Virus record (IMG/VR): IMGVR_UViG_3300022700_000179
Span: 41,714 to 105,713 of that record
DNA: 64,000 nucleotides
From: a virus
Direction: 5' to 3' (one strand)
Position numbers and translations under genes: made by a program. The notes under the pieces are model-generated. The model searched no databases and was not told the DNA's origin. It saw nothing but the letters and a program-made list of their open reading frames with translations. Shown here in pieces: positions 13,255 to 31,727 of this stretch; within the stretch, counting starts at the first letter, position 1, and every line of letters starts with the position of its first letter.

Positions 13255-13481
13255 TGGAAGTCTTGTCCAATTCACCACCAAAAAAGTTAGTATATAAAGG
13301 GCGTACTTACGTTCTTGCTAAGACACGAGAAGACTTAATGTGGGAACAGGTAGAGAGACTTTTGTCTCAAATGTTAAACACGGTCAAGTCGGATCGTCCT
13401 TCGATTAGCAAAAAGAGCGGAGTCGCCGGTACATATCAAGAGCTTAAGGTCTTCCTCAAAGATCTAGGCGTCACGCTCTAG
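13254..13481 (+). CDS. Small protein carrying the YKG motif
   Basis: TAATG-coupled start; PPKKLVYKGRTYVLA at 13275-13319. Confidence 0.6.
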   Translation: MEVLSNSPPKKLVYKGRTYVLAKTREDLMWEQVERLLSQMLNTVKSDRPSISKKSGVAGTYQELKVFLKDLGVTL

Positions 13482-13564
13482 CTTCAACTCACACACCTCT
13501 CTGCCGCGACATTATCTGAATTACCAGACTGGTGTGTTGTATACCTGCAACATCAGGAGGTCTC

Positions 13565-15874
13565 ATGGCAACAGAGGGTAAAACGAGAGATGGACCGTCA
13601 ATGACTCCAGAGGAGAAATACGCCTCTGAGTTGCTTGATACGGCGGCAAAGAAAAAGAATAAAAAACCCAAAAAGAAAAAGAAGACTGACCACGAAACCA
13701 ACGTCCAGAAGTTTTTGCGTGACTTCTTCGAATTAGGGAAACCTAAGAAGAAGACCAAGAAAACTAGTCCCGGACTACCTGGTTTGTATTGGAGAGGGGT
13801 CGAAGATTCACCCTTCTCTTATCAACCCGGTGGTGATGGTGGAGGGGATGGTGGGGGCGGTGGAAATGGTGGGTCGGCTGCGAGTGTTGCCGAGACCGAG
13901 GAGGAATTGATGCGCCAGCTCCGAAAGAAGATGGATCTAAAGGGCAAAAAGGCGGGTGGAGAGAACCCCTATGTTGGTTGGGATAATCTTCCTAAGGGAT
14001 GGACCAAAGAGTCCGTAGAGAAGTTCTGGGGTTCCCTGACTGGTGATCATGAGCACAAGTTCACAGAGTGCAGGAAGAAAATGGAAGGGAACGTAGACGA
14101 TCCCGATGCTTTCTGTGCGTCGTTAAAGGATATGATGAAGGGTACTGAAGAGTGGCGGGGTAAAGGCAAAGGCGCTGCTAGTACCTCTTCACGACCGTAT
14201 AGTGCTGATTCACTCGATGAAATGGGCTTCGATCCTGGACGTGCTCAAAACGAGTTCCGCCAAGAAACTGGACCGGTAGAAGAAGCCATCCAAATCGAAG
14301 AAACCCCACCTACTGAAGTCGATCCCGAAGAAGTTGAGCCCGTTGACATGGAGGACGTATCTGCGAATCCTCCCCAAAGGGCAGATATGGCATCAGGAGA
14401 AGAGACACAGAACGTGCCCGACGGGCCAGAAGCAATGGAGGATCCGCAGATGCAAATCCACAAGGGAACCGAAGAAATTTTTGAAGTAGATCCAAGTATG
14501 GTTGAGGAGCTAAACGTAGCCGTTGACCTGGAAGTTGGCGAGGACGATGAGGATGATTACGCGTCGCCTGTCCCGAGTGAAGGGGATGAGATGGAAGCCG
14601 TAGAGGACGAGGAGGATGACCTGCTCGGTGACGAAGAAATTCCAGAGGTAAGCGACGAGGAAGTCGAGTACGAGCTGGAGATGGAGGCTCCTGAGGAAGA
14701 TTTGGGCGAGATGGAGGAGGAAGATGAGCTGGAGGAGGCGTGCGGATCGAGAGGGGATCGCGCGAAGCTGTATAATTCTGAGCAGCCTGTCCTTGTAAAG
14801 GAAGATGATGTTGAAGTTGTTGATGAGGGACGTGGACACGCCGGTGCAACCCCTGATTCCCCGCCGACTACCTTAGAGCCCGAAGATGCGGAGGCTCCTA
14901 CACTCCCACAAAGCGACATCAAGGTACCTGCGATCGATCCTGCGGAAAAAGAGAGCACTGACGTGGTGTATGAGGTCGTAGTGCCTGCGTCGTCTTTAAC
15001 GGACGAGTCGATCGATCGTATCGAGTTGGCACGCTACGGCGAGAACTCAGACGATCCAATGTATATCGTCCTCTTGGACGGCGATCCCGTTGCTAAGATT
15101 GCACTTTCAGACCAAAACCTCCCCGATGAGCACCGAGAGACCTTCCTCGATGACAACTATCCCAACTTTGTCCTTGAGGGCATGGAGCAGTTTGGTGTCC
15201 AGGCGACTTTGAAGACGGTTAACGCCCGTTTCTACGCGGCCCGTGCAAATGAGGGTGAAGTAGCCGAGTCGGTTAAGGCCCGTGTCGCCTCTGAGATGCA
15301 CGAGGCGCGGCAGGTAGAGATCGGTCGGTTGAAAGACGATCTGCTGAATGTGGCCTCGGTAGTTCTGCAGGGAACTATGAAAAATTACCTGTTGGACAAC
15401 CCCCTGCGTGATGCACTGATCTCACGGTTCCATCGTGCCGGTGTGGATCCCAGTGCTGCGGTTGACGAAATTGACGATGCCTTCCGTTCAGCTGGCCAGG
15501 ATTTCTTCAACACAGTTCTTGAAACAGCTGACGAGTGGCTCGGCCTCCCCAAGGAAGCCCTTGAGCACCATGTCCAGAAAATTCAGGAAATGTCGCATAG
15601 ACATCCTGGATACGACATGGTTCAGGGTTACAACGAGGACGACATCCCCGAAGCAGTCGAGCCCACCCCGGAACCTCGTCAGTATGCTGCACAGGCGGCT
15701 GCACCTGCCCCAAGTGTGCCCAAGAACGTTCCCTTGCGCAGCGCGGCCCCACGAGCACCCTCCGGTGGTGGATTCAAGCAGGATAAAGAGTATTGGAAGC
15801 GTCAGCTGAACCTCAGCGGTCGTGTAGCGAACGCTTCTTTGGCTCAGTATCAGCTCCGTAACCCCAAACAGTAG
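13565..15874 (+). CDS. Acidic scaffold/prohead core-like protein
   Basis: AGGAGG SD, very D/E-rich centre, helical C-terminus, located between portal and protease, followed by a strong hairpin. Confidence 0.55.
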   Translation: MATEGKTRDGPSMTPEEKYASELLDTAAKKKNKKPKKKKKTDHETNVQKFLRDFFELGKPKKKTKKTSPGLPGLYWRGVEDSPFSYQPGGDGGGDGGGGGNGGSAASVAETEEELMRQLRKKMDLKGKKAGGENPYVGWDNLPKGWTKESVEKFWGSLTGDHEHKFTECRKKMEGNVDDPDAFCASLKDMMKGTEEWRGKGKGAASTSSRPYSADSLDEMGFDPGRAQNEFRQETGPVEEAIQIEETPPTEVDPEEVEPVDMEDVSANPPQRADMASGEETQNVPDGPEAMEDPQMQIHKGTEEIFEVDPSMVEELNVAVDLEVGEDDEDDYASPVPSEGDEMEAVEDEEDDLLGDEEIPEVSDEEVEYELEMEAPEEDLGEMEEEDELEEACGSRGDRAKLYNSEQPVLVKEDDVEVVDEGRGHAGATPDSPPTTLEPEDAEAPTLPQSDIKVPAIDPAEKESTDVVYEVVVPASSLTDESIDRIELARYGENSDDPMYIVLLDGDPVAKIALSDQNLPDEHRETFLDDNYPNFVLEGMEQFGVQATLKTVNARFYAARANEGEVAESVKARVASEMHEARQVEIGRLKDDLLNVASVVLQGTMKNYLLDNPLRDALISRFHRAGVDPSAAVDEIDDAFRSAGQDFFNTVLETADEWLGLPKEALEHHVQKIQEMSHRHPGYDMVQGYNEDDIPEAVEPTPEPRQYAAQAAAPAPSVPKNVPLRSAAPRAPSGGGFKQDKEYWKRQLNLSGRVANASLAQYQLRNPKQ

Positions 15875-15903
15875 TCTTTGATTTTTAGTCGTGCTCTGCA
15901 CGC

Positions 15904-15937
15904 GGAGGCAGGGTTGAATCCAACCCTGCCTCCTTTG
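15904..15937 (+). terminator. Hairpin/terminator after the scaffold-like gene
   Basis: GGAGGCAGGGTTG-AATC-CAACCCTGCCTCC-TTT, a 13-bp perfect stem. Confidence 0.7.
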
Positions 15938-15966
15938 GAGGGCGCGAGCCACAAGGAGCAGTTTGG

Positions 15967-16797
15967 ATGTTGACTCTTCCCAATATATATACAAGCTCTC
16001 ACAGAATAGTTTCTAGCGGTCGCGGGATACATGTTGGTGACACTTTCTTTTCCCAAACACAGAATGGGGACATATATTACGATGAGCCTAATTTTATAGA
16101 GGGCCATCGGCTAGAAACGCTTCGCGCAAACGGCGGTTCTAGCATACGTATAGCTGGAACAGAACTAGGCAAAGTATCACAAAACTGTGCTTGCGGTTTT
16201 TTGGACGTGTCATGGTTACCTTTGGCCGCGAAAGCGTACAAGATAAGTCCCGATATTAAAGATTATGTCTTGGTAGACATCCCAATTGTACTGGCGAACG
16301 TACCTAATAGAAACGGCGACTGCTTTACTTACAAAGAACTCACTACCTTCCGTCCAATTATTGGCATGCCGGCGTTCAAGACGTTCTATGGCAAGCCCGC
16401 ACACCAGGATCACGATAATATGGATCCGACGCGTGCAAAGGGGGTTATTTTCGATGCAACACTTACCCCCTTCCGCGGCGTTTGGCATGTAAAAATACTA
16501 AAAGGCTTCGACCGTACCAAGGATCCGCGTCTTGCAAAACTGGTTCGCCAGAAATCACGCATTGGCCATTCAATGGGTGCGTTGGTTGAGCGGACTGAAT
16601 GCGGGTTACCATGGTGTAACTTCCATTCAGATGGGCGTATAACTTGTGACCATATTAATGGAGGTCAGGGTAAGGGGGATATTATTAAGGGACATCTAGT
16701 CTATGAGAACATGATGGACTACTATTTTGTGGAATGTAGTTCAGTAGAAGATCCAGCATATCCGATCGCTCTTTCTCGAGAAATATGGGGAGTGTAA
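15967..16797 (+). CDS. Prohead maturation protease (HK97/herpes-type fold, putative)
   Basis: PNRNGDCF, KTFYGKP..QDH (His), HSMGA (Ser), ECSSVEDPA; head-module position. Confidence 0.7.
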   Translation: MLTLPNIYTSSHRIVSSGRGIHVGDTFFSQTQNGDIYYDEPNFIEGHRLETLRANGGSSIRIAGTELGKVSQNCACGFLDVSWLPLAAKAYKISPDIKDYVLVDIPIVLANVPNRNGDCFTYKELTTFRPIIGMPAFKTFYGKPAHQDHDNMDPTRAKGVIFDATLTPFRGVWHVKILKGFDRTKDPRLAKLVRQKSRIGHSMGALVERTECGLPWCNFHSDGRITCDHINGGQGKGDIIKGHLVYENMMDYYFVECSSVEDPAYPIALSREIWGV

Positions 16798-16801: not shown

Positions 16802-17689
16802 ATGAATCCTCCGTCCCAGATAAAGTATAAGGGCACCATTTACAAGCTTAGATCTGCAGGGGATGTTCAGGTCTCTCCGGGCAGTCCAGTGGGACCGGAG
16901 GGGGTATTATTGATTGAACGTCAATACCCTACGGAATCTCGGGCATTGTATATCGACAACGATGGTGATTTCTTTGCCAAAATAAAGCTCAATTGGCACA
17001 AGAGTAATGTGTTTGACGAGTTAACATTTGATCTTTCTCCGGCAGGAGCGAAAGAGTTTTTTGATAGCCTCAAAACAGAAAGTGACGGTAAGCTGAGCGC
17101 TAAGATACCGGACGAGCAAGTTAGGCAATTGTGGGGGCCAGCTGTGCCAAAAACGCCGGAGGGTGTGGATCCCAAAAAAGTCATAGATGTAAGTGGGCAC
17201 TACATAAAGGTATCTGATCTTCCGGCTGACATAAAGCGGGAAGCTGCATACACATTTGAGGGTCTTCTTCGGGAAGAATTGGCAAGTATAAGTAAAATAG
17301 AAGGTCGATTCTGCTCCGATCCTTTTAGCGTAATGGGCTTGCGCTACAATGTTCCAGAACATGTAGTTCAGCTGTTTGCAGAGACGCTTACAAACGCTAT
17401 GAACGAGTATTTAAGAGAGCAATTCAACACACAGGCTACGGTAGACATAAATGTAGCGGACTCCTGTGGTCCTGTAGACGGGCATGGGGGTATATACGTA
17501 TTCGGTAATGGTAGAGAGGAACTTAATAACTTACGTGTACATTTAGAGGGGAACGTTTTGTTACCTGTATGGCGGGAAGTGTGGAATAGGTATCAGCAGG
17601 GAGAGATACCTGTTGGAGAAAAGCAAAGAGCGTTGGCTTCTTTCAAAGTCAAAGTACTAGCTGCAGTTCGTCCGGAGAACGGTCAGTAG
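16802..17689 (+). CDS. Hypothetical protein with N-terminal YKG motif
   Basis: MNPPSQIKYKGTIYKLRSA. Confidence 0.6.
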   Translation: MNPPSQIKYKGTIYKLRSAGDVQVSPGSPVGPEGVLLIERQYPTESRALYIDNDGDFFAKIKLNWHKSNVFDELTFDLSPAGAKEFFDSLKTESDGKLSAKIPDEQVRQLWGPAVPKTPEGVDPKKVIDVSGHYIKVSDLPADIKREAAYTFEGLLREELASISKIEGRFCSDPFSVMGLRYNVPEHVVQLFAETLTNAMNEYLREQFNTQATVDINVADSCGPVDGHGGIYVFGNGREELNNLRVHLEGNVLLPVWREVWNRYQQGEIPVGEKQRALASFKVKVLAAVRPENGQ

Positions 17690-18458: not shown

Positions 18459-18935
18459 GTGATGCCCAAGATTCCAGAGGAGATACAGTATAAAGGGTGC
18501 CGCTACGTATTAGCTGGGCGTAAACGTGGGCGCAAATCTGCTACTATTAAGGACAGTGGCTACCGACACGATGGCATCTTGTTTTACATAAATGTTCTCT
18601 GCCGAAGTAAGACAGGGAACGACTTGCCGTCTAGATTTGCAACTAGAGTAAATACAATCCCGGAAGGTATCTCACTTAATGAGCAGGAAACCGTAGCTGC
18701 GAAAAAAGCCATTGGAGATAGTGGCAAAAAGAAAGACAGCAATCTGTGGCACATACTAGTACGAGATGAGGGTTGGTTTTGGGCGGATGATCCTAAGAGT
18801 GTACAAAACGCTGTACCGATCCAGCAGACGTTGGATCTCGTTGAAAAGTATCGCGAGTGGGACCGCCCAGGAACCAATCCTTTAATCTATGCGGAGATCG
18901 TCACAAAAGTTGTTGGCGGCCGTAAAAGGGATTAG
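18459..18935 (+). CDS. Hypothetical protein with N-terminal YKG motif
   Basis: AGGAGG SD; IPEEIQYKGCRYVLA. Confidence 0.6.
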   Translation: MMPKIPEEIQYKGCRYVLAGRKRGRKSATIKDSGYRHDGILFYINVLCRSKTGNDLPSRFATRVNTIPEGISLNEQETVAAKKAIGDSGKKKDSNLWHILVRDEGWFWADDPKSVQNAVPIQQTLDLVEKYREWDRPGTNPLIYAEIVTKVVGGRKRD

Positions 18936-18938: not shown

Positions 18939-19994
18939 GTGTTAGTAGTCTCCTCTGACAATTTCTCTGACTACGTCAAGGAATACGATCGCCGTGTTCT
19001 TGAGGGAATCAGTAAGAAAAATGAGGGAGAATATGGTGGTATAGACTTGATTGTTGAGGATTGGGGTGGGTCTCCCACTTTCCCAGGTATCGCACTCCTC
19101 ATTAAAAGATTCGACTTGAATCTGCCTAGTACGGTAGAGGAACTGCAAGAAGATTTTGATGATGTGGCCGATCTGATTAGCTCGTTAGAGTTTAAGGTAA
19201 TGAATAAAGTAGTTCGGCCTATTAACAATCTCAGTGAGGTAACAAGGGTAGGGGGCGTTTACTCCGTTGGATGGGATGGAAGAAAACTAGCTCTTATGTT
19301 CAATGCCGGCCCATCTGAGGTAGAAGATCTAATGTCGGTGAAGGATAGGATAAACGTTGCTACTACACAGCAAGAAAATGCTGAGCTGCTCCGATGTGTA
19401 CGTTCAGCGGTAGACCACATTAAGTCCGCGGACCTCGGCAGAGCTTCAGAGGTAGATGCTCAGCACCTCAATGAGGCAATAGACATACTCGAAATATGTG
19501 GACTTTCAGACAAAACTAAGGACGTACGGTTGGCGCTCAAGAGTTTTGACAGCAACATAGAATCCGCTAGAGAGTATATTTATGGCCCTACTGGCCATGG
19601 CACAAACCGTGGCGCCCTGTACGATTTAATCACTTTCGCTGAGTCCCTCGAGAAAAATGTTGAGTCCGGACCGTTAGAGCAAGGTAATTCCAGGAGTCTT
19701 CTAATGCACCCGATTTCGCCTTACATCGTCTATCAAGGTTCGGTATACAAGAAGGTAGCTTACGACCTCCCTAAGGATATGAAAGGCGTAGAAAAATGTA
19801 AGCCCGAGGATTTTGATCCTAAGCGTGATCCTGCCGACCAAGAATGGTGTACGTACAGTTACGACGGTAAACTGCGCGGTCGTTTTAGAAAGAAGAAGGA
19901 CGCGTTACAGCACAAAGTATTTTTGATTAACATGTATTGGCAGAAGGGAAAGGGCAAGAATAAACCTAAGGGTAAATATTGGCGTAAGAAGTAG
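18939..19994 (+). CDS. Modular protein with internal YQG motif and C-terminal EKC..WC..YDG module
   Basis: PYIVYQGSVYKKVA at 19719-19760; C-terminal module shared with the 27441 ORF. Confidence 0.6.
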   Translation: MLVVSSDNFSDYVKEYDRRVLEGISKKNEGEYGGIDLIVEDWGGSPTFPGIALLIKRFDLNLPSTVEELQEDFDDVADLISSLEFKVMNKVVRPINNLSEVTRVGGVYSVGWDGRKLALMFNAGPSEVEDLMSVKDRINVATTQQENAELLRCVRSAVDHIKSADLGRASEVDAQHLNEAIDILEICGLSDKTKDVRLALKSFDSNIESAREYIYGPTGHGTNRGALYDLITFAESLEKNVESGPLEQGNSRSLLMHPISPYIVYQGSVYKKVAYDLPKDMKGVEKCKPEDFDPKRDPADQEWCTYSYDGKLRGRFRKKKDALQHKVFLINMYWQKGKGKNKPKGKYWRKK

Positions 19995-20032: not shown

Positions 20033-20311
20033 TTACATTATAGTAGTCACGTAGAAGCCAGCGACATTACCCTGCAACATCATCACGGCTTCACCTCGCA
20101 ACATCAGACGGAAGCAACATTAATCGAGACGGACACTGTTGGTCTGTCCGGACTCTGCGGTCAGCAACATCATTTCAGAGCGCAGGTTTCGTCCAGGTCG
20201 ACAGCTAACTGGGAGGCAAGATTAACATTGCTTAGTACCTCTCCACGTCCTGAAAGCAATTGACCTGGTTTCAGGTCGTATCTGTTTAACCTGTTTTTGG
20301 AGGAAAGCCAA
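20033..20311 (+). promoter_or_regulatory. Capsid-operon leader: late-promoter-like site, GCAACAT repeats and hairpins
   Basis: TTACATTATAGTAG at 20033; GCAACAT at 20074, 20098, 20114 and 20164; hairpins GGACA..TGTCC (20131-20149) and GACCTG-GTTT-CAGGTC (about 20262-20277). Confidence 0.5.
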
Positions 20312-21067
20312 ATGGCACTGCTTCCCAACGCGTCTGTGAAGACGAAGGTAGACTTCACTCGCAGCCGGTTTGAATGGAAGCGCCAGTTTGAGGTTGCCGC
20401 TACCGCGAATATCGTGGAAGAGGGGTCTCTGCTGCAGCGCATTCCTGACGCCGCCGGTCTGAAAGAGGTGGTCGATCTCAGCACGAATGCAGGTTCCCTG
20501 CGTCCGGCTGGTATTTCCCTGCAATCTCGAATCTCTGCTACCACTTTCGCGTGGGTAGAGGAGGTCGTGGTTCCTAGTGGTGCGCCATACACGGTGCAGC
20601 TCAGCAAGACCAACATCATCGATTCTGGTGGTGGCATCGCTGAGGCCGCTGCGTGGGACTACAACGCATCTGCGTACCTGAATGTAGTAGCGGGTGCTCC
20701 TCTTGGTACTCAGTTTGAGGTTGTCCCTCTAACTGGTCTTACCACATTCAACGTGGCCGAAGCGGGTCACAGCGTTCGTATGATCTACCGCTACAACTTG
20801 ACTGCTATTGAGCGGGATGAGTTGCTGCGGCAGTCGCACGTAAACCGCGGAGCCGAGGATCAGTTCGGTCTCATGACCGTCGCTCAGGGGCACTGCGTGG
20901 TTTACACGACCATGTATGATGCACAAGAGAAGTACCTAGTAGGGGACCAGCTGACTCTCGATAACAACGGTCTGTTCTCTAAGTCTGGGGCTACGAATTT
21001 TGGAGTGGTCATTTCGGTTCCGACCGCTTCCGATCCGTACCTGGGCGTTGAATACGACGCTGCTTAA
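20312..21067 (+). CDS. Head decoration/cement-like structural protein
   Basis: GGAGG SD, immediately upstream of MCP, beta-rich, C-terminal G.V.SVPT..DPYLGVEY; codon style like the MCP. Confidence 0.6.
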   Translation: MALLPNASVKTKVDFTRSRFEWKRQFEVAATANIVEEGSLLQRIPDAAGLKEVVDLSTNAGSLRPAGISLQSRISATTFAWVEEVVVPSGAPYTVQLSKTNIIDSGGGIAEAAAWDYNASAYLNVVAGAPLGTQFEVVPLTGLTTFNVAEAGHSVRMIYRYNLTAIERDELLRQSHVNRGAEDQFGLMTVAQGHCVVYTTMYDAQEKYLVGDQLTLDNNGLFSKSGATNFGVVISVPTASDPYLGVEYDAA

Positions 21068-21092: not shown

Positions 21093-22238
21093 ATGAAGAC
21101 TTTCTCACGGAAACCATCTCTTCGGGATCGGCAGGGAAACGATATCGCCCATGGTAAGGCCTTCAAGGCTAACCCCCGTACGGGTAGTATGTCGTTTTCT
21201 GACAGCACGCCGCTGGTCGGATCCAATGGAGAGTACAATGCAGGTAGTGACCGTCAGCTGGCCGAGGTTGTTGACGGTATCGTAAAATTGGCTCGTCGTG
21301 GTGAGATTCACTACGAGGCGGGCACTGAAACCACTGCACAGGATGTGTCAGCCTGGAATCAGGAAGGCCATCTCGTGCAGGCAGCCCTGGCAGAGCGCGT
21401 GCCTTCGCAGGAAGGTCCGTTCCAGGTGCTTGGTGAAGTTTTCACCGACTCCGTTTCTGAAACCATGGGCCGCATGGGCTTCACCAACAAGGTGGTAGCC
21501 CAGCAGGACGTGGCTGAGGGTGGAACGGCACGTGTGCGCATCCGCCAGAAGGATGTCACTTCCTGGCTGATGCTGACCGACGGTCACACCGTTGAGTCCC
21601 TCATCCGTCAGAAGTACATCTATCCACGTGGCTACAACATCGAAACCCTCGTTATGATGGGTGAGGATGAGATCCACGAGGCTGGTGCACAGATCATCGA
21701 GGAAAAGTACAACGATGCGTTGGAAGCCACGATGGTCCGTGACGACAACATTACTAAGTTCCTGCTGGACCAGGCGGCAGACACACAGAATGACGTGATT
21801 GCTTTTAACGCATTCACTCCGAATGTGTTTGTTACCCTGCGTAACCAGATCTGGCAGTGGAGCCTCCCCGTCCCGCATTGCCTTATGGCTATCGACTTGT
21901 GGGACGACTTGTTCGCTGACCAGGACTGGGCACGTTGGTATTCGCCAATCGAGAAGCACGAACTGGCAGTCGAGGGTAAACTCGGTCGGCTTGCTGACAT
22001 CGAGATTATTACCGACGGCTTCCGTTATGACACCTTGCAGGTCCTCGACCCTGGCGAGGTTTACTTCTTGAGTTCTCCAGCAACTCTGGGTGTGAAGGCC
22101 AACATGATCGCGCTGAATAGCACGGTTGTTGACCAGCGCATGCTCGGACGCGCTGCTCGCGGGTGGTTCATCTTCCTGCGGCAGGCAACCATCATCGGTA
22201 ACGCTAATGGCGTTTCCAAGGGTATCCGTCTCTCCTAG
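21093..22238 (+). CDS. Major capsid protein (HK97 fold)
   Basis: AAGGAG SD, 381 aa, C-ending codon bias, EGKLGRL...ITDGFRYDTLQVLDPGEVYFL (recalls RSL1-like MCPs), followed by a terminator. Confidence 0.85.
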   Translation: MKTFSRKPSLRDRQGNDIAHGKAFKANPRTGSMSFSDSTPLVGSNGEYNAGSDRQLAEVVDGIVKLARRGEIHYEAGTETTAQDVSAWNQEGHLVQAALAERVPSQEGPFQVLGEVFTDSVSETMGRMGFTNKVVAQQDVAEGGTARVRIRQKDVTSWLMLTDGHTVESLIRQKYIYPRGYNIETLVMMGEDEIHEAGAQIIEEKYNDALEATMVRDDNITKFLLDQAADTQNDVIAFNAFTPNVFVTLRNQIWQWSLPVPHCLMAIDLWDDLFADQDWARWYSPIEKHELAVEGKLGRLADIEIITDGFRYDTLQVLDPGEVYFLSSPATLGVKANMIALNSTVVDQRMLGRAARGWFIFLRQATIIGNANGVSKGIRLS

Positions 22239-23280: not shown

Positions 23281-24546
23281 ATGCGACTTTGGCTGGACGA
23301 CGACCCCAATCGTGCCGTACCTTCAGGGGTCGACGTAATAGTACGTACGGCCGACGAAGCAATAAAGTGGATTGCTTCTGGTCAGATAACAGCAGTTTCT
23401 CTGGATCACGATTTGGGTAAATCTTCTGCTAGCTCTCCTGTAGATCCTGGCACCGGTTATGACGTAGCTCGGTGGATTGAGGAAAAAGCGTACACAGGTG
23501 AGTTGCCTCGTATTCAATGGTCAGTGCATAGCGCAAACCCAGTTGGTGCCAAGAGAATGGAGGACGCGCTGAACAACGCAAACCATTTTTGGTCCCAACA
23601 CGAAGATACAGTAAAAGAAGCTGACGGCCGCAATATCTATGAACTTGTTCGTACTATGCCGCCTACCGAGGACGGTGTGATGATCGATACTCTCAATTTG
23701 GCAGGACAAGAGGATGCCATGTTTTCCAAAGATGACGCGTTAAAAGCCGCTGAAGAGCTAGAGATTGACTGGGATGCTGTAGATTTTACACCAGAAGCTC
23801 TCATGAAAGGAATGAACGTAGAGTTGGAGCATGGCACTCGGTATGACGACGCTAACGTGACCGACGACGAGATGCTGCCTACGGCAAAAATTGCTTTGGC
23901 ACATTTGTACGAGTTTGCTGACTACTACGAAAGACTAGAGCGTATGGAGCAGGAGGCTATGAAAGAAACTAGTATTTTACCTGCACATGTAAAATATAAG
24001 GGAGCTGACTACTATTTAGCAGGTAAAGGTCGCATGCCTAAGGAAATGCGGCAGGGATGGGAGTCCGGTGACTGGGCTGAGTTTACCATTCCGGAGACAG
24101 GCGAGCATGGGATGGGAAGGATCATTTGGTTTGTGAAGTATGGTGATAAGGGCGCGGCGGTAATTCCAGTCAAGGCGATAAAAGACGATAGAGGCGAATG
24201 GTGGCCTGTTCCGGGACAGCAGGAGTATCTGCTACAATTAGAAGATTTGAAGCGAATTGATTATCCCGGTGAGCTATTACAGAATATCAAACCTAAGTTC
24301 AAGGAACTATCCCAAGATACAGCCGACATTGCAGGGGACCAACCTACTCTGTTTCTCCATAGAGATCCGGCGACAAAGCACCACTACGTGGAGCATCCTA
24401 GTATTCCTACCGCATCTTCTCTGCCTAGAGTCATTACTTTCGGGGGTGCCAAATACGAACGCTACGTAGAATTTCCAAAATACATACATTTTAATGGTAC
24501 CAAGTACGTCCTAGCAGGTTGCCAAGGTGAACGAGGAGCGATGTAA
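23281..24546 (+). CDS. Fusion: cyclic-phosphate-processing receiver domain (cREC) + DUF5661-like domain + three YKG motifs
   Basis: MRLWLDD..R, SLDHDLG, TGYDVA.W and HSANPVG (cREC); GMNVELEHG..NVT.D..TAKIALAHL.E..DYYERL..ME (DUF5661-like). Confidence 0.75.
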   Translation: MRLWLDDDPNRAVPSGVDVIVRTADEAIKWIASGQITAVSLDHDLGKSSASSPVDPGTGYDVARWIEEKAYTGELPRIQWSVHSANPVGAKRMEDALNNANHFWSQHEDTVKEADGRNIYELVRTMPPTEDGVMIDTLNLAGQEDAMFSKDDALKAAEELEIDWDAVDFTPEALMKGMNVELEHGTRYDDANVTDDEMLPTAKIALAHLYEFADYYERLERMEQEAMKETSILPAHVKYKGADYYLAGKGRMPKEMRQGWESGDWAEFTIPETGEHGMGRIIWFVKYGDKGAAVIPVKAIKDDRGEWWPVPGQQEYLLQLEDLKRIDYPGELLQNIKPKFKELSQDTADIAGDQPTLFLHRDPATKHHYVEHPSIPTASSLPRVITFGGAKYERYVEFPKYIHFNGTKYVLAGCQGERGAM

Positions 24547-25271
24547 TGCCTAGTCAGCGTATAATGTACAAAGGTCAAGTTTACAGACTGGCTGATACCA
24601 GTAACATTAACGTAGAGCAGAAAATTCAAGAAGTTATTCCTATAGTTAAAAAGTATATGCAGTCTGCGGGTATTGGAACTGGGGAGCCTGAATTTGACGA
24701 TTATGATGCTATGGCTATGGCAGACATACTTGTTCATGCTATTTTGCACGCTGAGCTGTTCAACGAGGGACCGTACGAACATAAAGGATTCATCGAATGG
24801 CGTGAGCAGAACTATCCAAAGTCGAAGGTGGGGGCCGGGGTTTACGACGTTGTAATGTATATGGGTATGAATGCTCCTGGGCTCCTAGACAAAGCTGTGG
24901 ACGTATTGAAAGGACCCACAAAGTTTGATGAGGAATCTGCGGCTCCAGATCAAATTAGTTACAAAGGTGCAGTATACAAGCAAGCTGTGCAAGGACAGGA
25001 ACTGAACCCGAGACAGCTAGCGGACAAAATTATTATCCAAGCAGAGAACACGCAAAAAGAACTGAACGAAAAGTTAGCAGTTGCTAAACAGTCACTAGAG
25101 AATGCTGTTTCTAGCGAGGAAAGCGAGACTGCAACCGAACGACTAAGCAACATCTTGAAGGAAGCAGAGTCTGCTTACAACCAAGTTTGGCGGCTGCTGT
25201 ACGCAATGGAAAACTTTGCTACTACAAAGACAACTAACACTGAGGAAAAGAAAGAAGACGAAGAAGAGTAA
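24546..25271 (+). CDS. Two-module protein, each module preceded by a YKG motif
   Basis: PSQRIMYKGQVYRLA and APDQISYKGAVYKQA. Confidence 0.65.
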   Translation: MPSQRIMYKGQVYRLADTSNINVEQKIQEVIPIVKKYMQSAGIGTGEPEFDDYDAMAMADILVHAILHAELFNEGPYEHKGFIEWREQNYPKSKVGAGVYDVVMYMGMNAPGLLDKAVDVLKGPTKFDEESAAPDQISYKGAVYKQAVQGQELNPRQLADKIIIQAENTQKELNEKLAVAKQSLENAVSSEESETATERLSNILKEAESAYNQVWRLLYAMENFATTKTTNTEEKKEDEEE

Positions 25272-27526
25272 TGTCTGTCTTCTCTCTGGACAATAAATCC
25301 TTTTCCGAGTGGCTGGAATCCAATCCAGATTATGATTATGTGCTAGAGTCTCTTCGCAAAGGGGTAGAAGAATTCTATAAAGAGTTTGTGAACGAGGGTA
25401 AGTACTCGGATTGGGTGTTTAATACCGATAACGGTATCAAGTCGACAGTCGGTGATGAATCCCGCCGTCTTTACGACGAATCGAAAGAAATTATCTATTC
25501 TGCGGATCCAAACCAACTACCTAAATTAGCTGGAAACGTGGAGGAAGCCCTCAACTACCTAAAAGATTCTATTGATGGTCGTAACTACATGCATGGCGTT
25601 CCAGCTCGTCTGAAAAGACTTCGACACAGGATTCATGAAATTGTGGACAGGTTTTCACAACCTACAAAGGTGCAAGCAATGCCTTACGACCAGGAGTTAG
25701 GTCCTGAGTACCGATACGAAATTGAGATGACTGGACCGGAGATGGCTCTGTTATCTACTTGGACTTCTGGTATGGGACCTCTATACGCTTTGGTTAGTCG
25801 TTTATACCGTGACCAAGGTCGTGCAACAGCGTCTGAACGTGAGCTAGATGAAGTATTGGATGCGGCAGGAATGACTATATCCGATGCGGTAGAGGGCATT
25901 ACAGAAGATGATAAAGTTGTGGCCCGAGGGATCATCAAGAAACTGAGTAAGGTACTCGATGTTCCTGAGAACGAGTTGCTAGAGATCTCTGCCGCAGCCG
26001 ACTCACCTATCGAATACTACAGGCAGGTTTTTGTAAACACGTTCGACGATTTATATAAGAACCTTTTTGGTCCATATGCTACGTATTTGGTGGAAGACAC
26101 GGGTACGCTAGAATCGGCGGCCCGTCGAGTAAGATACAGGCTGGGGGATCTACGCGAAAATCCTTCAAACAAGCTAGTTGATCAGTTAGAGAGGGATTTA
26201 ACTTCTTTCTATAACGCTTTGGATGCAGGGTTTGCAGCTTCTGGCGATAAACTCAGCTACAAACACCGTGGTTATAGGGAAGTTTTTCGCAGAATACTAG
26301 AAACCATACGAAGGATATTAGGAACAAAAGAGTATGCTGAAGGGGAAGAGCCAGAGCCGCCCCTGCGCTATCCCAACAGACCACCATTTCGTGATATGGG
26401 ACCTTTTAATAGAAAATCCAGCCGCAGTGAAAAGGGAGAGACAAAGATGGAATTACCCAAGGAAATCAAATATAACGGGTTGAAGTATGTACGTGCTGAG
26501 AATCCTGCACGTCCAGAGAAGAGTGCTCTTGATGAGGGGAAGATTCGTAAAGAGCTGGAATCGCAGTTTGGAGGCAATGTCCCCGCGCAGGAGTATAAAT
26601 ACCTCGACACCGTCAGCGGACCGAGCGGTAACCAATCAGACGCAGTAACGGACACTAAAGAAATGAACAAACGCCGTGAGGATGCCCTTAAAGGGAAGGG
26701 CTCAAACGACCAATCTGACCTGAACTCCAATACACCAAACAAGATCAAGTATGCGGGTTTGGTGTACGTGAAGGCAGAACCAGAAAAGCAATCTGCAGCT
26801 ACAACTTTACCTCCGCGAATTAAATACGCAGGTCGTGAGTATGTACGAGTTGGGTACGAGGATGCCGGTGAGTACAAATCGGATGACATGACGACTTGGA
26901 AGCCGGGTGAGGAAAAGGGCAAAAGTAAAAAGCTTGATGACTATTTTAGTCCCAGCGATTCCGGCAAAGCCGACTATTCTGAAAGGATGCCCAACAGCGA
27001 AGTGGATTTCGATAAAGCATCCGAAGGTATCGATCCGGCTTCCAGTGAACCCGGTCCAGAAAAGGGCGGCGGCGAGAACATGCCTAACGAGGAGCAGTCA
27101 AAAGAGACGGCCAAGGGTATGCCACGCCTAGACGGTGATGAGGACCGCATACCGACCGCAGCGAGTTCTCAGCCGCAGAGCATCAACTACGCTGGACATC
27201 GCTACGTTAAGGTAAGCGAGGCAGAGGCACGTAGAATTCTGGCAGCCAAGAAGAAGGAAAAGAAAACGGATCTGCCCAAAGGTTGGTCTAATAAATCTGC
27301 TAAAAAATTCTACGAAGATGCAGGTGCTACTGTTACCAAATGTGCCCGTGAAGTGAAAAAGCTCAAAAAGGAGGGTGACAAGAAATGCAAGGATGTTGAT
27401 GATCCTAAGGCGTTTTGTACTACCCTGGAGGGGCTTTACGATGAAGATGGCGACGAAAAATCCAAGAGCACGAAGTCTAAAGGCAAGAAAGATAACGGGT
27501 CCAAAGACAAAAAATCCAAAAAGTAG
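25271..27526 (+). CDS. Large modular protein with four YxG motifs and an LPKGW..DDP.AFC module
   Basis: Motifs at 26456, 26735, 26810 and 27173; Lys-rich tail. Confidence 0.65.
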   Translation: MSVFSLDNKSFSEWLESNPDYDYVLESLRKGVEEFYKEFVNEGKYSDWVFNTDNGIKSTVGDESRRLYDESKEIIYSADPNQLPKLAGNVEEALNYLKDSIDGRNYMHGVPARLKRLRHRIHEIVDRFSQPTKVQAMPYDQELGPEYRYEIEMTGPEMALLSTWTSGMGPLYALVSRLYRDQGRATASERELDEVLDAAGMTISDAVEGITEDDKVVARGIIKKLSKVLDVPENELLEISAAADSPIEYYRQVFVNTFDDLYKNLFGPYATYLVEDTGTLESAARRVRYRLGDLRENPSNKLVDQLERDLTSFYNALDAGFAASGDKLSYKHRGYREVFRRILETIRRILGTKEYAEGEEPEPPLRYPNRPPFRDMGPFNRKSSRSEKGETKMELPKEIKYNGLKYVRAENPARPEKSALDEGKIRKELESQFGGNVPAQEYKYLDTVSGPSGNQSDAVTDTKEMNKRREDALKGKGSNDQSDLNSNTPNKIKYAGLVYVKAEPEKQSAATTLPPRIKYAGREYVRVGYEDAGEYKSDDMTTWKPGEEKGKSKKLDDYFSPSDSGKADYSERMPNSEVDFDKASEGIDPASSEPGPEKGGGENMPNEEQSKETAKGMPRLDGDEDRIPTAASSQPQSINYAGHRYVKVSEAEARRILAAKKKEKKTDLPKGWSNKSAKKFYEDAGATVTKCAREVKKLKKEGDKKCKDVDDPKAFCTTLEGLYDEDGDEKSKSTKSKGKKDNGSKDKKSKK

Positions 27527-28382
27527 CTCTGTTCAAAGGCGGGCGGTCATAGAAAAATGTGACAAGAAGGATCTTGATCCTGATGAGCCGAAGAGCGAGC
27601 AGAAGTGGTGTTTGTATACTCATGATGGGGATAAGCTTTTAGGTAGGCATCCTACTAAGGAAGACGCTGTGGATCAAGAAAAAGCAATTCATGCAGGGTC
27701 TGCCAATAGACGTATTATGTATAAGGGAGCTACGTACGTCTTGGCAGCGGCGCCTCTTGTTAAAAGTACTAGCGGCTTTCTTGCAGTAGAAATAGGCCCC
27801 ACTACTGCAACGGGCGACATAGTAGAAGCTATACGCATGTTCTTGCAGGACACTAAGCGTGACTATGCAACTATCCAACTTGGTAAGTATCTGGTAGAGA
27901 ACGCTCCCGGCTCAGACTTTGTTGGGGTACGTGGCTTGTACTACAACAGTTTTAACAAGTCTTGGCAGGAAAGCCCCATTCCCTCAGCGCAGTATACGAC
28001 GGGTAAAGAAGACACTGCTGAGCAGATTGTGCAAGATTGGCTAGATGACCGTTGGTCAGCTGGTATGAACGCTACGGGTTCGGTGGCACCTAGGTCGATT
28101 CGTTACAAAGGTGTCAAATATGTCTTAGCTGCCAATCCTGCTATTATGTGGTCGCCCCAAGAAGCGACAGCCATGTTCTTCGAGCAACTTGTATCAGAGA
28201 TGGACAAGCTCAATTCTATGATTGCTGACGCTACGAAAAAGGATCCTAAATCTGGTAACGACTACGTTGTAGTGTGGGCCCAGCCCCTCAATCAGCAGCT
28301 GAAAAAGATAGATACTTACCTGTCTCAAGTGCACAAATCGTTGAAGCAGAATCTTCCAAAGCAGCAGTCGCCTTCTGATTAA
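27441..28382 (+). CDS. Modular protein with EKC..WC module and two YKG motifs
   Basis: GGAGG 9 nt before ATG 27441; NRRIMYKGATYVLAA and PRSIRYKGVKYVLAA. Confidence 0.6.
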   Translation: MKMATKNPRARSLKARKITGPKTKNPKSSSVQRRAVIEKCDKKDLDPDEPKSEQKWCLYTHDGDKLLGRHPTKEDAVDQEKAIHAGSANRRIMYKGATYVLAAAPLVKSTSGFLAVEIGPTTATGDIVEAIRMFLQDTKRDYATIQLGKYLVENAPGSDFVGVRGLYYNSFNKSWQESPIPSAQYTTGKEDTAEQIVQDWLDDRWSAGMNATGSVAPRSIRYKGVKYVLAANPAIMWSPQEATAMFFEQLVSEMDKLNSMIADATKKDPKSGNDYVVVWAQPLNQQLKKIDTYLSQVHKSLKQNLPKQQSPSD

Positions 28383-28408: not shown

Positions 28409-28726
28409 ATGGAACGTGTATCCGATATAAAAAAGACACTCTCAGACTTAGATATTTCTGAACCAGAGTCTGTGGGGCGCTTTTACGTCGTAGCCTTAGT
28501 TACAGGTCTCTCCCTTTCCTTGTCTAAGGTCGATTTTAAGTACATGCCCTCTATAAAACAAACTTGTGTGCATATATTGTATGGCCATATACCTACAATA
28601 TTTACTGTAGTCCAGGAACACAAAAAGGAACTAATGCTTGAACTCGGTGTTCTTCTACGAAAGGGGCCGAGGATGTATAGAAAATCGGCTCTACGGGAGC
28701 TAGCAACCTACGGTAAAGATAAATGA
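28409..28726 (+). CDS. Hypothetical protein
   Basis: Operon context; ATGA overlap with the next gene. Confidence 0.45.
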   Translation: MERVSDIKKTLSDLDISEPESVGRFYVVALVTGLSLSLSKVDFKYMPSIKQTCVHILYGHIPTIFTVVQEHKKELMLELGVLLRKGPRMYRKSALRELATYGKDK

Positions 28727-29007
28727 GCAGTCCAACAAAGATAATTTATAGGGGTGCTACTTACGTTCTCGCCGACGCCGCGTTAGAAAAATTCTCCGAG
28801 AAGGCCCGTGTGGTTATACCAAAGCTGTTTGAACTTTGGGTAGGTGACGAATCTAATTTCAAGAACCTGAAAGCTGTTTTCGGCGGTCAACCAGCAGACA
28901 TTATAACAGATCGGCTCCGTGACAAGTTCAGCACAGATCTGGCAGACATTGCTACATTGATTGTGGACTTTGGTCCTGCAGCAGAAAGACTCTCGAGCGA
29001 TGACTAA
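28723..29007 (+). CDS. Small protein with N-terminal YRG motif
   Basis: SPTKIIYRGATYVLAD. Confidence 0.6.
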   Translation: MSSPTKIIYRGATYVLADAALEKFSEKARVVIPKLFELWVGDESNFKNLKAVFGGQPADIITDRLRDKFSTDLADIATLIVDFGPAAERLSSDD

Positions 29008-30388
29008 TCACGAAGCTGGAAACGATGTAGATGTTGCTGCGGATGGTGTTATGCCTTTGTTGGAGGTCGGGCAACAGGTAGAGACTCCTTTAGGCCACGG
29101 CCGTATTAGTGATATTAGTCTTGTGGCTTCAGACTATGGGACCCAGGTTGAGATGGAGCCTAAGATTATGGTTGATCTCGACGATCCTGAGGAAGGTATT
29201 CCTAATACTATACAAGTTTGTATGTGTAAGCTTGGACTTGGCGACGAGAAAAAAGAAGCTATAATTCGAAAAGAATTCAGTAGGCTTTGGCCACCGATCA
29301 CGGATGAGATACCCCAAGATTCCAGAATGATCGTAGATGTCCAAAACGAATTTGCGGAGACATCCAACATGACTACTCCCAGAGACACCGAAATTAAACA
29401 GTTTCATAAATTGTATCTAGGTGCCCTACAGTCAGATTCGCTGGACCCTTCAATTCTCCGGGATATCCAGTTAGTTGCTTACAAAAAATATGTTGATCTT
29501 TCTAGAGGATCTAAGAAAATAAGGGGCCGTATCGGGGATAGCGAAGAAGGCATGGTGGTCGATGTAGGGGCAGACGGCGGCAATGAATCTGCGGTCATCT
29601 TAAAAAAGAAGAAGGGCGACGAGGGGTTTACTCGCCTACTACTTTTCCTACCCGACAGCGATTCGCTAAAATGGGTCGCAGTTCCCGAGGACGTAGAGTT
29701 TGATGGATATGATGGCAGGGATGATCTGGGGGTAGAGCCACACGTCTACGATGACATGCGTTTAAACAGTCCTGAGTTGCATACGATCCGTAGACTTCCG
29801 GAAACCTATCTACCGCATGACCCGAATTACCCTTCCAGCATAACCACTACATTATGGAGGCCAACGATTCGTATGACACCGATCCGCTATTATAACACCC
29901 GTGAGGGGGCACTGGAAGTTAAACCTGAACATGCTCCCGAAAATGAAGAAAACTTGGAAGCAAACCAACAGGATTTGGTTAACTATCCTACTCCGGACTT
30001 TGTGCCACATGAGCATCACATGGCGCCATATGAGTCGGGGCAGCCAGTGTATGAGTATAGGGAAGACAAACGTCATCCGCATGCGCCAGAATTTATAGAA
30101 CCCACAGACGAATTGGTGCAATCCGCGGCCGATTTCTGGAGAGAGTACACGTTGGCACGTCAACGTTACAATCCGGCTTTTGGTTCCCACTTGAACAAAG
30201 ACGTACACCAGTTTGTAAAGGATTTTATGTCTCTGAAGGACATGTCCAGAGATGACGCTTTGGATTTACTCCGTTACATGGTGCAAGTAGGGTATTTTCC
30301 TCCAAGTGTATACGATTCAACTGTAGACACCTTCGCAGCAGATGACGTTGGTATGACCACTCGGACGCACTACACCAACGATGCGTAG
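29000..30388 (+). CDS. Hypothetical protein (SH3-like start LEVGQQVETPLGHGRI)
   Basis: Long ORF with overlapping start/stop on both sides. Confidence 0.55.
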   Translation: MTNHEAGNDVDVAADGVMPLLEVGQQVETPLGHGRISDISLVASDYGTQVEMEPKIMVDLDDPEEGIPNTIQVCMCKLGLGDEKKEAIIRKEFSRLWPPITDEIPQDSRMIVDVQNEFAETSNMTTPRDTEIKQFHKLYLGALQSDSLDPSILRDIQLVAYKKYVDLSRGSKKIRGRIGDSEEGMVVDVGADGGNESAVILKKKKGDEGFTRLLLFLPDSDSLKWVAVPEDVEFDGYDGRDDLGVEPHVYDDMRLNSPELHTIRRLPETYLPHDPNYPSSITTTLWRPTIRMTPIRYYNTREGALEVKPEHAPENEENLEANQQDLVNYPTPDFVPHEHHMAPYESGQPVYEYREDKRHPHAPEFIEPTDELVQSAADFWREYTLARQRYNPAFGSHLNKDVHQFVKDFMSLKDMSRDDALDLLRYMVQVGYFPPSVYDSTVDTFAADDVGMTTRTHYTNDA

Positions 30389-31727
30389 TCCCACACCGAC
30401 CATAATAGAATTCCGTGGTGCATTTTATTGTATTGCGGATTCTGATGATGAGTTCGTTCAAGAGGTCGTCCTTAAGAAACTAAAGGAAAAGGGGCTGGAC
30501 CTGCCTGAAGAGATCCTTAGGGGTCCAGAAGAAACCGGCGAGCAGTATATCCCTGAGCTTACACCAAAAGATATAGAAGAAACAACGGAAGAAGTCACTG
30601 CGGTAACCCAAGCTGCCAGAGCACATGCTGAAGGCCTACTTCAAACGAATGGCATAGATTACGACCCAGATATTATCTACTCTGTCAATTTTCCTGAACT
30701 TTCCGAGGATAGGGGTTTTGTGGTTGAAGGTGAAGAGGGAGTGGAGGTAAGGTTCAAAGTTAACAAGGGTAATCTGTCACATTTTGATGGCAGCGCTTGT
30801 ATTTTTGATTACCGCTTTCCAGAGAGTATCTGGAGTCAGGTAAGGGATCGACTTCTAGGTCGAGGACGGATCACGCCCGGTGGACATGAGCTGGTCGAAT
30901 TTATTTTCCAGTTTTGCAATCATAACTTTGGTGTGTCCGCGCAAAAGGGTGCGTTGTTCGACGAACTGATTGCAGCCATTGGTTTTGTACAAGATCCGTC
31001 AAAAGTAAAAACTGATGCTTCTCGAAGACTGGAGCCGGTAGGCGGTACCCTTGAGGAGAGGCAAGAGCAAGTACTTGACTGGCTGAAAGAAATTATTCAA
31101 GAGGAAAACCAGCGCGGTAAAGGTGAGAGAACCAATTGGAATAATGAGGGTAGTGTACTAAGTACACTTAAATTTTATAGAGGCGAAAAGTTTATAAGCA
31201 AAGAACAGTATGACGAGATACTGAATTGGTTGGACACCGATTTTAGATCAATAATGGATGCCGCTGTAGCCAGGGCTCAGGGTAGTGGTGGTGGAGCGGC
31301 GGAGTCTGGTGGAGGACTAGTTAAGACCGTCGAAGAGTATGTCAAAGATCTAGCTGGTCAAGCTGGATACAATGGTCCAATACATTCGTACATTGATAAG
31401 AATACTGGTTTAATTGCATCTCAAATCGAAGCCCCCTACCGATTTGTGTACTTCCTTGAGAGGCAGGCCGGCGGAAACGTCAAGCTGGTTAGGGCATCAA
31501 TGCGTTTTTGTGACTATGACTACAGCGTAGATGACCCAGCTGACGCAGTAGAGCTACTAAAGCACGATGTCACTTTCGGAATGGCGTATAAAAATGCAGT
31601 GAATCCCAAAAAGTCTAAGCGTTACAGGAAGAAGTCCTTCGAGGATCACGTCCGGGACTACGTTTCGCAACAGGCCAAGCAGATGCAAGAGCAAGCCGGC
31701 GGCGAAGTCGAGGAGCCCATAGTGTAG
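30381..31727 (+). CDS. Hypothetical protein with N-terminal motif variant
   Basis: PTIIEFRGAFYCIAD; last gene of the late block. Confidence 0.6.
   Translation: MRSPTPTIIEFRGAFYCIADSDDEFVQEVVLKKLKEKGLDLPEEILRGPEETGEQYIPELTPKDIEETTEEVTAVTQAARAHAEGLLQTNGIDYDPDIIYSVNFPELSEDRGFVVEGEEGVEVRFKVNKGNLSHFDGSACIFDYRFPESIWSQVRDRLLGRGRITPGGHELVEFIFQFCNHNFGVSAQKGALFDELIAAIGFVQDPSKVKTDASRRLEPVGGTLEERQEQVLDWLKEIIQEENQRGKGERTNWNNEGSVLSTLKFYRGEKFISKEQYDEILNWLDTDFRSIMDAAVARAQGSGGGAAESGGGLVKTVEEYVKDLAGQAGYNGPIHSYIDKNTGLIASQIEAPYRFVYFLERQAGGNVKLVRASMRFCDYDYSVDDPADAVELLKHDVTFGMAYKNAVNPKKSKRYRKKSFEDHVRDYVSQQAKQMQEQAGGEVEEPIV

Follow-up and report, generated by a model that had tools for sequence, protein, structure and literature searches.

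In the stretch of viral DNA analyzed here (referred to as the window; 64,000 nucleotides, corresponding to bases 41714-105713 of the 105,713-bp viral contig G000, IMG/VR record IMGVR_UViG_3300022700_000179), a 14-residue peptide with the pattern P-x-x-I-x-Y-K-G-x-x-Y-V-L-A was detected in 20 copies, all on the + strand, by a six-frame regular-expression scan, and a hidden Markov model (HMM) was built from these copies. They are spread over 12 open reading frames (ORFs) among the head genes, starting at positions 13230, 16802, 18459, 18939, 22385, 22610, 23281, 24546, 25271, 27375, 28723, and 30381 of the window. We tentatively interpret this peptide (referred to as the tag), for which a β-hairpin is predicted, as a loading tag for virion cargo similar to the capsid-targeting sequence (CTS) of phage T4, a reading to which we give a somewhat less than even chance. 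A preliminary description of this DNA had reported about 20 copies in 12 head-region ORFs; all of them were recovered by the scan and the HMM, at positions that had been exact or 3 nt upstream.

Recurrence and conservation of the tag

In the 105.7-kb genome, 31 six-frame matches to the core pattern were found, compared with a mean of 0.78 and a maximum of 3 in 50 codon shuffles. The residue identity between copies was 46%, while the nucleotide identity over 42 nt was 50% on average and 74% at maximum, and different codons were used in 64% of the identical residue pairs; the preliminary proposal that codons differ between copies and that conservation is at the peptide level was therefore supported. 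Since the codons drift while the peptide is kept, selection acts on the peptide.

A profile alignment of 66 copies from the phage and its relatives gave S/K-x-x-P-x-x-[IVL]-[KTR]-[YFV]-[KR]-G-x-x-Y-[VRK]-[LR]-[AV]-[DEAG], in which Gly and the second Tyr were invariant, and Pro, Ile, the first Tyr, Leu, and Ala were strongly conserved. The last residue of the tag was Ala in 45 and Val in 15 of these 66 copies, and the position after it was acidic in 42%. The tag itself is basic, with ~3 Lys/Arg and 0.4 Asp/Glu per 14 residues (net charge of ~+2.5). Among orthologues of the 83-aa protein described below, the identity was 57-79% in the tag vs 36-43% over the whole protein (manual count); judged from these alignments, the tag is better conserved than the protein that carries it.

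When the tags were masked in an all-against-all BLASTP comparison of 24 tagged and 10 untagged head proteins, only two further small common modules were found among these 34 proteins. The carrier ORFs are thus unrelated outside the tag, as had been proposed, and the view of the tag as a portable, peptide-level unit also stood, because the carriers are dissimilar once masked and a topoisomerase IB is tagged (see below). When the tagged proteins, and tag segments on their own, were scanned against Pfam, PHROGs, and NCBIfam, no family was obtained for the tag apart from a sub-threshold match to DUF4278 (see below). A profile search of PDB sequences with the tag gave chance matches to carbonic anhydrases only, and a structure search of the ESM Atlas with the tandem tag gave generic β-sheet matches only. 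Inspection of the promoter regions upstream of tagged and untagged genes revealed no obvious motif in common.

Tag copies in the window

All of the following copies are on the + strand, and HMM scores are given in bits. The tag PKKLVYKGRTYVLA (13278-13319; 28.1 bits) is located at residue 17 of an 83-aa ORF (13230-13481), whose position upstream of the scaffold-like gene is kept in relatives, with tagged orthologues in the related loci L004, L007, L008, and L009. The tags PSQIKYKGTIYKLR (16811-16852; 24.5 bits) and PEEIQYKGCRYVLA (18474-18515; 26.8 bits) are found at residue 4 of a 295-aa ORF (16802-17689) and residue 6 of a 158-aa ORF (18459-18935), respectively, the latter having orthologues in L001, L002, and L013. 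The next copy, PYIVYQGSVYKKVA (19719-19760; 14.3 bits), is one residue shorter than the others and internal (residue 261 of the 351-aa ORF 18939-19994).

Immediately 3' of the gene for the major capsid protein (MCP), a 60-aa ORF (22385-22567) carries PTKIKHKGYTYVRA (22400-22441; 31.7 bits) at residue 6. It is followed by a 219-aa ORF (22610-23269) with tandem tags at its N-terminus, QQKIKYRGATYVLV (22622-22663) and PKEITYKGAKYVLA (22676-22717), scoring 27.4 and 30.4 bits, respectively. Three copies were found in the 421-aa ORF 23281-24546: PAHVKYKGADYYLA (23980-24021; 24.0 bits), internal at residue 234, and the tandem pair PRVITFGGAKYERY (24424-24465; 19.0 bits) and PKYIHFNGTKYVLA (24475-24516; 25.1 bits) at the C-terminus. 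In the 241-aa ORF 24546-25271, SQRIMYKGQVYRLA (24552-24593; 25.4 bits) is located at residue 3, and PDQISYKGAVYKQA (24945-24986; 24.0 bits), at residue 134, heads a segment referred to as module B.

Four copies are present in the 751-aa ORF 25271-27526: PKEIKYNGLKYVRA (26456-26497; 25.6 bits) at residue 396, PNKIKYAGLVYVKA (26735-26776; 24.2 bits) at residue 489, PPRIKYAGREYVRV (26810-26851; 21.9 bits) at residue 514, and PQSINYAGHRYVKV (27173-27214; 21.7 bits) at residue 635. The tags NRRIMYKGATYVLA (27705-27746; 27.0 bits) and PRSIRYKGVKYVLA (28089-28130; 24.8 bits) are both internal in ORF 27375-28382. The first listed start of this ORF, GTG at 27375, overlaps ORF 25271-27526 by 150 nt, so that translation more probably begins at an internal ATG close to 27441. 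The last two copies, PTKIIYRGATYVLA (28732-28773; 31.0 bits) and PTIIEFRGAFYCIA (30396-30437; 20.8 bits), are found at residue 4 of a 94-aa ORF (28723-29007) and residue 6 of a 448-aa ORF (30381-31727), respectively.

Placement, modules, and predicted structure

Positions within the carrier proteins were counted for 111 copies from the contig G000 and 11 related loci: 57 were within 25 residues of the first start codon, 10 were within 12 residues of the stop, and the remaining 44 were internal, located at module boundaries. The preliminary description had placed the tag at N-termini or between modules, and a strong enrichment at these two kinds of place was confirmed, about half of the copies being N-terminal.

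The arrangement of modules was clearest in the 421-aa ORF 23281-24546, where a cREC_REC domain (E 9e-25) and DUF5661 (E 5e-16) are followed by a tag, a region of ~130 residues without assignment, and two further tags. The cREC domains are predicted counter-defense enzymes of jumbo phages that process cyclic phosphates or ADP-ribose (PMC7824862). The second half of ORF 24546-25271, consisting of a tag and module B, is homologous to residues 205-319 of the protein P0150 (BLASTP E 1e-13), in which the same unit is found at the C-terminus, after cREC-DUF5661. Since the tag and module B occur together in two protein contexts, the tag moves with the module downstream of it, and proteins with several tags resemble fusions of modules that are each headed by a tag. 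Distant homologues of the cREC-DUF5661 protein fell below the HMM threshold, but their alignment contains a divergent P-x-L-I-K-V-W-G-G-x-Y-R-L-A at the same junction; divergent tags are therefore missed at this threshold, and the counts obtained with the HMM are too low.

In AlphaFold2 models analyzed by DSSP, every modeled tag was assigned as strand-turn-strand with Gly in the turn, in line with the β-hairpin-like pattern noted in the preliminary description, although this is a prediction from shallow alignments. The tandem tags of the 219-aa ORF 22610-23269 were modeled as two hairpins (strands 7-10/13-16 and 25-28/31-34) with pLDDT of 66-72. In the model of the 421-aa protein, cREC and DUF5661 were confident, and the tags (pLDDT <50) were not packed on these domains. 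Given the shallow alignments, these models fit a tag that would be a unit separate from the neighboring folds.

Copies elsewhere in the genome

Scanning of the whole fragment with the HMM revealed ~14 extra copies in genome positions 1-41713, on both strands and among tRNA and other genes. The contig therefore contains ~34 copies in ~23 tagged ORFs in total, of which 20 copies in 12 ORFs belong to the co-oriented head operon (from the portal gene to 31.7 kb of the window). The tag is therefore not confined to the head region, ~40% of the copies being elsewhere and on both strands; since these copies lie beside genes of unknown timing, the confinement to late genes expected in the preliminary description is not established. 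On the other hand, as had been noted for the putative early region, the HMM gave no copy scoring above noise between 33 and 64 kb of the window. The tag was also absent from the terminase, portal, scaffold-like protein, protease, structural protein 20297, and MCP in the HMM scan.

Among the extra copies, one is located at the N-terminus of a 504-aa topoisomerase IB (Topoisom_I in Pfam, E 8e-15; genome 36191-37705, L018:16191-17705). The N-terminal region of this enzyme, ~180 residues, has no family match. In the same part of the genome (1-41713), a tag is present at the C-terminus of a 282-aa protein, and tandem pairs are present at the N-termini of 91-aa and 199-aa proteins. In the relative G001, 36 matches were found, nearly all of them in three blocks (174-181, 217-220, and 259-293 kb), and the largest block (259-293 kb) also contains the terminase gene (270-272 kb) and the MCP gene.

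Distribution among phages

A total of 65 head loci were collected with an MCP profile and searched for the tag at an HMM threshold of at least 12 bits. The 15 loci with MCP identity of at least 61% contained 2.5-13.4 tag copies per 10 kb, every one of them on the MCP strand, and 0-2 copies per locus were found in the six loci with 43-50% identity. No copies were found in the 44 loci with identity of 41% or less, which served as a negative control, and the tag was therefore assigned to one clade. As far as these loci represent the group, it is limited to this clade of huge phages (~350 kb).

A profile search against 1.84 billion representative proteins gave 79 significant matches. When ten of these were run through Pfam, five proved to be false positives, namely Gram-positive surface proteins of the MucBP or related types and one sigma-70 protein, while most of the remaining matches were small proteins that open with M-S-x-P-x-x-I-K-Y-K-G-x-x-Y-V-L-A and contain a second copy. 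All ten matches looked up in the cluster table were metagenomic proteins on short contigs, and a look-up of the profile-search matches in IMG/VR returned no relatives. Among cultured phages, no match was obtained by tblastn with the tandem tag or by megablast with the 18-kb region, and a whole-protein search with the 219-aa tagged protein matched only the protein itself.

In the head loci of sister clades (32-40% MCP identity), other N-terminal peptides are common to unrelated ORFs, each set being specific to its clade: M-(S)-K-Y-P-T-[VL]-E-K-[IV]-L-A-S in L044 (positions 14257, 14688, and 16018), M-S-I-K-x-V-I-x-K-Y-x-x-T-A-S in L066 (2566, 3986, and 15051), and M-R-P-[ED]-L-x-x-R-x-L-[RK]-V-A in L035 (92, 11105, and 11364). 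All four clade tags finish with hydrophobic-x-Ala (..ILAS, ..VTAS, and ..RVA in the sister clades). These comparisons suggest that clade-specific leader tags may be a general feature of this assemblage of huge phages. Repeats of other kinds were also observed in the head loci: ORFs with collagen-like Gly-X-Y repeats adjoin the MCP gene in the distant relatives L028, L039, and L058, and four of the ORFs in L073 contain an ankyrin-like repeat, G-N-T-P-I-H-Y-L-A.

The phage and its head genes

The completeness of G000 was estimated by CheckV to be ~30%. Fourteen close relatives (MCP identity of 75-92%) were found in IMG/VR, and one of them, G001, is a complete genome of 349,793 bp with direct terminal repeats; G000 is therefore a piece of an uncultured huge phage of ~350 kb. 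The MCP (21093-22238, + strand; phrog_2522, E 2e-43) has ~30% identity to those of the cultured jumbo phages PaBG, Lu11, BcepSauron, and Vibrio GR11A.

The other untagged head genes are also on the + strand: the terminase large subunit (7086-9578; phrog_17415, E 4e-93), the portal protein (10034-12373; phrog_16240, E 2e-85), a 780-aa scaffold-like protein (13532-15874), the prohead (head-maturation) protease (15967-16797; phrog_18299, E 5e-51), and, upstream of the MCP gene, a virion structural protein (20297-21067; phrog_16710, E 1e-12). Asp and Glu make up 35% of residues 230-480 of the scaffold-like protein, and its C-terminal 310 aa are kept in relatives. The protease is of the jumbo-phage or T4 gp21 type, with 35-39% identity to prohead core proteases of jumbo phages. 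The minus-strand region at 34-64 kb of the window contains genes for thymidylate kinase, a DNA-repair protein, and a DHH phosphoesterase. The Pfam model of the tail sheath had no match in G000 or G001.

Two modules other than the tag were also observed in these proteins. One, of ~55 residues (L-P-K-G-W...C...D-D-P-x-A-F-C), is present in residues 152-201 of the scaffold-like protein (13985-14134) and residues 667-722 of ORF 25271-27526 (27269-27436), and joins the untagged scaffold-like protein with the 751-aa protein that has four tags (BLASTP E 5.5e-5). Matches to this module were also obtained in L003 and L010, in ORFs that follow the MCP gene; it has no Pfam family and could be a core-anchoring domain. 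The other, of ~41 residues (K-C-x-x-x-D-x-D-P...W-C-x-Y-x-x-D-G-x-x-L-G-R), is found in two tagged proteins, in residues 284-323 of ORF 18939-19994 (19788-19907) and residues 37-77 of ORF 27441-28382 (27549-27671), with 46% identity (E 6e-8) and a weak match to phrog_3684.

Discussion

A portable peptide under selection on about two dozen unrelated proteins implies either a common reader or a common intrinsic activity. In the mechanism that we tentatively favor, the tag would be a self-contained basic β-hairpin, with x-I-x-Y as strand 1, K/R-G as the turn, and x-x-Y-V-L-A as strand 2, and would act as a portable address at the N-terminus of a protein or module, at times in tandem or at the C-terminus. 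One common partner would read it, whatever protein carries it. The most likely destination would be the interior of the assembling prohead, where the tag may dock on a component of the core or scaffold, or on the shell from the inside; docking would probably involve strand addition aided by charge. Proteins without known relatives (ORFans) and enzymes such as the topoisomerase IB and the phosphoesterase-like cREC-DUF5661 protein would thus be loaded into the capsid and delivered with the DNA. We infer the single receptor, its location in the prohead, and the packaging and ejection of the tagged proteins from several lines of evidence. The density of tags in the head operon and their strict co-orientation with the MCP gene in relatives favor the capsid, as does the absence of the tag from shell-building proteins and nucleotide-metabolism genes. 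The capsid is also favored by the presence of the tag on types of enzyme whose delivery by phages is known or predicted (PMC7824862, PMC9024508), and by the precedents of T4 and P1 (PMC5694885, PMC9024508). The different N-terminal peptides shared within the head loci of three sister clades point in the same direction. The acidic 250-residue tract of the untagged scaffold-like protein (35% Asp+Glu) suggests itself, by inference only, as a possible partner of the basic tag.

A more elaborate form of this mechanism is possible, but we regard it as doubtful: the tag may be the label of a high-capacity system for cargo loading, read by one receptor in the prohead core, in which tandem or multiple copies set the copy number by avidity and each clade has a label of its own (as those of L044, L066, and L035 differ). 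If true, the set of proteins that uncultured huge phages inject, with enzymes such as topoisomerase IB and cREC phosphoesterases among them, could be deduced directly from sequence. A loading tag would allow the enzymes for first-strike counter-defense and DNA handling that are carried into the cell to be listed from genomes, and would also represent a very small label (14 residues) for the loading of large capsids. Even with a destination other than the capsid, a conserved peptide on about two dozen unrelated proteins would point to a hub protein in this phage clade.

Several observations weigh against the tag being a loading signal for the capsid. About 14 copies are outside the head operon, on both strands, amid tRNA genes and genes of unknown timing. 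In contrast to the T4 CTS, the tag occupies an internal position in 40% and a C-terminal position in 9% of the copies. The receptor, whether MCP, scaffold, or decoration protein, was not identified. A protease site of the Glu type does not consistently follow the tag: [ASG]-x-E was found within 16 residues in 16 of the 66 copies, and Glu was immediately next to the tag in 13. The confidence of AlphaFold2 for the tags is low to moderate (pLDDT <50 in the 421-aa protein and 66-72 in the tandem pair), and the relatives are all uncultured metagenomic contigs. Closure of the tag by a cleavage site of the T4 or giant-phage protease, considered as a separate proposal, was not supported at these frequencies (16/66 and 13/66).

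The copies outside the head operon (~40% of those in the fragment, on both strands and beside tRNA genes) would be in agreement with a docking tag for a hub other than the capsid, such as a phage chaperone or assembly factor, a component of replication or of a compartment, or a host protein, with the enrichment among head genes reflecting only where fast-evolving accessory genes gather. A tagged topoisomerase IB could likewise work in the cell rather than in the virion, and a partner among the head proteins was not found. We nevertheless consider such a hub unlikely, because the copies in the head operon are very dense and all on the MCP strand in 15 relatives, because there is no copy in the nucleotide-metabolism region of the window, and because head loci of sister clades contain analogous N-terminal tags. 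Composition raises a different possibility, that the tag is a minimal nucleic-acid-binding basic aromatic β-ribbon, which tethers proteins to phage DNA or RNA and brings them into the head by passive co-packaging with DNA. The net charge of ~+2.5 per 14 residues, two invariant or near-invariant tyrosines, frequent tandem copies, which would raise avidity, the copy on a DNA enzyme (topoisomerase IB), and a weak likeness to the YRG-motif family DUF4278 (E 0.0075) are all consistent with this. However, strand 2 (Y-V-L-A) is hydrophobic on both faces, suggesting burial against a protein, and many carriers are acidic and helical with no other sign of nucleic-acid binding. Since, in addition, no known DNA-binding family was matched in Pfam, NCBIfam, or PDB sequences and the DUF4278 score was under the cut-off (17.0 vs 25.3 bits), direct binding to nucleic acid appears distinctly unlikely.

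The location of the motif exactly at module boundaries, in a phage encoding a protease of the T4 gp21 or jumbo-phage type, may also be explained by a processing junction, at which the prohead protease recognizes the hairpin and cuts at ...Y-V-L-A, freeing modules and trimming N-terminal leaders. Proteases of this type are related to herpesvirus assemblin, the sites of which have small hydrophobic residues at P1/P2. The tags of sister clades also end with hydrophobic-x-Ala, and the T4 CTS ends at its own cleavage site (PMC5694885). The invariant residues of the tag are, however, the Gly of the turn and the second Tyr, not the putative P1 (Ala in 45/66, Val in 15/66); related proteases cut after Glu, at A-x-E or L-x-E (PMC10052503, PMC5694885), and such sites are inconsistent after the tag. 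Cleavage would also be pointless for tags at the extreme C-terminus, and we therefore regard a processing junction as improbable. Finally, the shuffling of tag-led modules between proteins leaves room for a tag with no function of its own, either as the only recognizable remnant of one family of rapidly diverging paralogous domains or as a scar left when recombination shuffles gene modules; most carriers are ORFans, for which BLASTP does not rule out deep paralogy. A functionless remnant is nevertheless highly improbable, because the tag is found on unrelated known folds (on topoisomerase IB and after cREC and DUF5661) and in N-terminal, C-terminal, and tandem placement, the peptide is kept while the codons drift and is more conserved than its carriers, and homologous recombination would require a higher DNA identity than that between copies (mean of 50%, maximum of 74% over 42 nt).

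Comparison with known systems

DUF4278 (PF14105) was the sole curated family to give a signal with the tag (17.0 bits, E 0.0075, with the tandem tag). The gathering threshold of 25.3 bits was not reached; the best place genome-wide scored 14.1 bits, and only 1 of 34 places responded. This family corresponds to the N-terminal, YRG-motif domain of IF17, a factor that inactivates glutamine synthetase in cyanobacteria (PMC6212724). Both have two hairpin-like h-x-Y-R/K-G-x-x-Y motifs near the N-terminus, whereas DUF4278 is cellular (cyanobacteria) and its molecular role is unknown. Membership of the tag in DUF4278 was rejected on the score (17.0 vs 25.3 bits), and the resemblance may be convergent.

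Among phage systems, the N-terminal 30 residues of DarB of phage P1 act as a packaging signal in the manner of the T4 CTS (PMC9024508), and ejection proteins of the SPN3US/phiKZ type have long N-terminal propeptides (PMC5694885, PMC10052503), which in SPN3US comprise 80-130 residues and are removed at A-x-E. The tag would resemble these signals, which bring large enzymes or ejection proteins into myovirus heads from the N-terminus, in its proposed role, in the giant-phage context, and in the idea of anti-defense enzymes delivered ready-made. It differs from them in that they are limited to single proteins or paralogues, and are not one short motif on many unrelated proteins.

Short, portable peptides at termini or between domains, as proposed here, are also found in encapsulins and bacterial microcompartments. 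The cargo-loading peptides of encapsulins are extended, rich in Gly, Ser, and Leu, and usually C-terminal, and dock the cargo in a luminal pocket of a shell with the HK97 fold, while the encapsulation peptides of microcompartments are amphipathic helices of ~18 residues. The tag, predicted to be a basic aromatic hairpin, has no sequence relation to the encapsulin peptides, differs from them in pattern, and is strand-turn-strand rather than a helix like the microcompartment peptides, according to DSSP on the AlphaFold2 models.

The nearest known functional counterpart is the T4 CTS. According to the review covering this system (Mullaney and Black 1996, reviewed in PMC5694885), the CTS is carried by the internal proteins IPI-III, Alt, and gp24, and brings internal and foreign proteins into the prohead core. 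Both peptides are short and found on otherwise unrelated proteins (57 of the 111 copies of the tag being N-terminal), and the carriers lie with the head genes (20 of ~34 copies), where a gp21-type protease and a separate scaffold or core are present. The proposed role, loading into the prohead and ejection with the DNA, is alike by prediction only. Assignment of the tag to the CTS itself, on the other hand, fails on sequence, on the protease site, and, for half of the copies, on position: the consensus here, S-x-x-P-x-x-I-K-Y-K-G-x-x-Y-V-L-A, is unlike MKTYQEFIAE; neither L/I-x-E, the site of the T4 protease (PMC5694885), nor A-x-E, that of the SPN3US protease (PMC10052503), closes the tag; and internal, tandem, or C-terminal placement accounts for half of the copies. 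A β-hairpin is predicted for the tag, and none has been reported for the T4 CTS. About two dozen tagged proteins are present in 106 kb here, in contrast to the handful in T4. If the tag is a loading signal, capsid targeting, known from a few proteins of T4 and P1, would in this clade be scaled to dozens of proteins with a structurally different and repeatable label.

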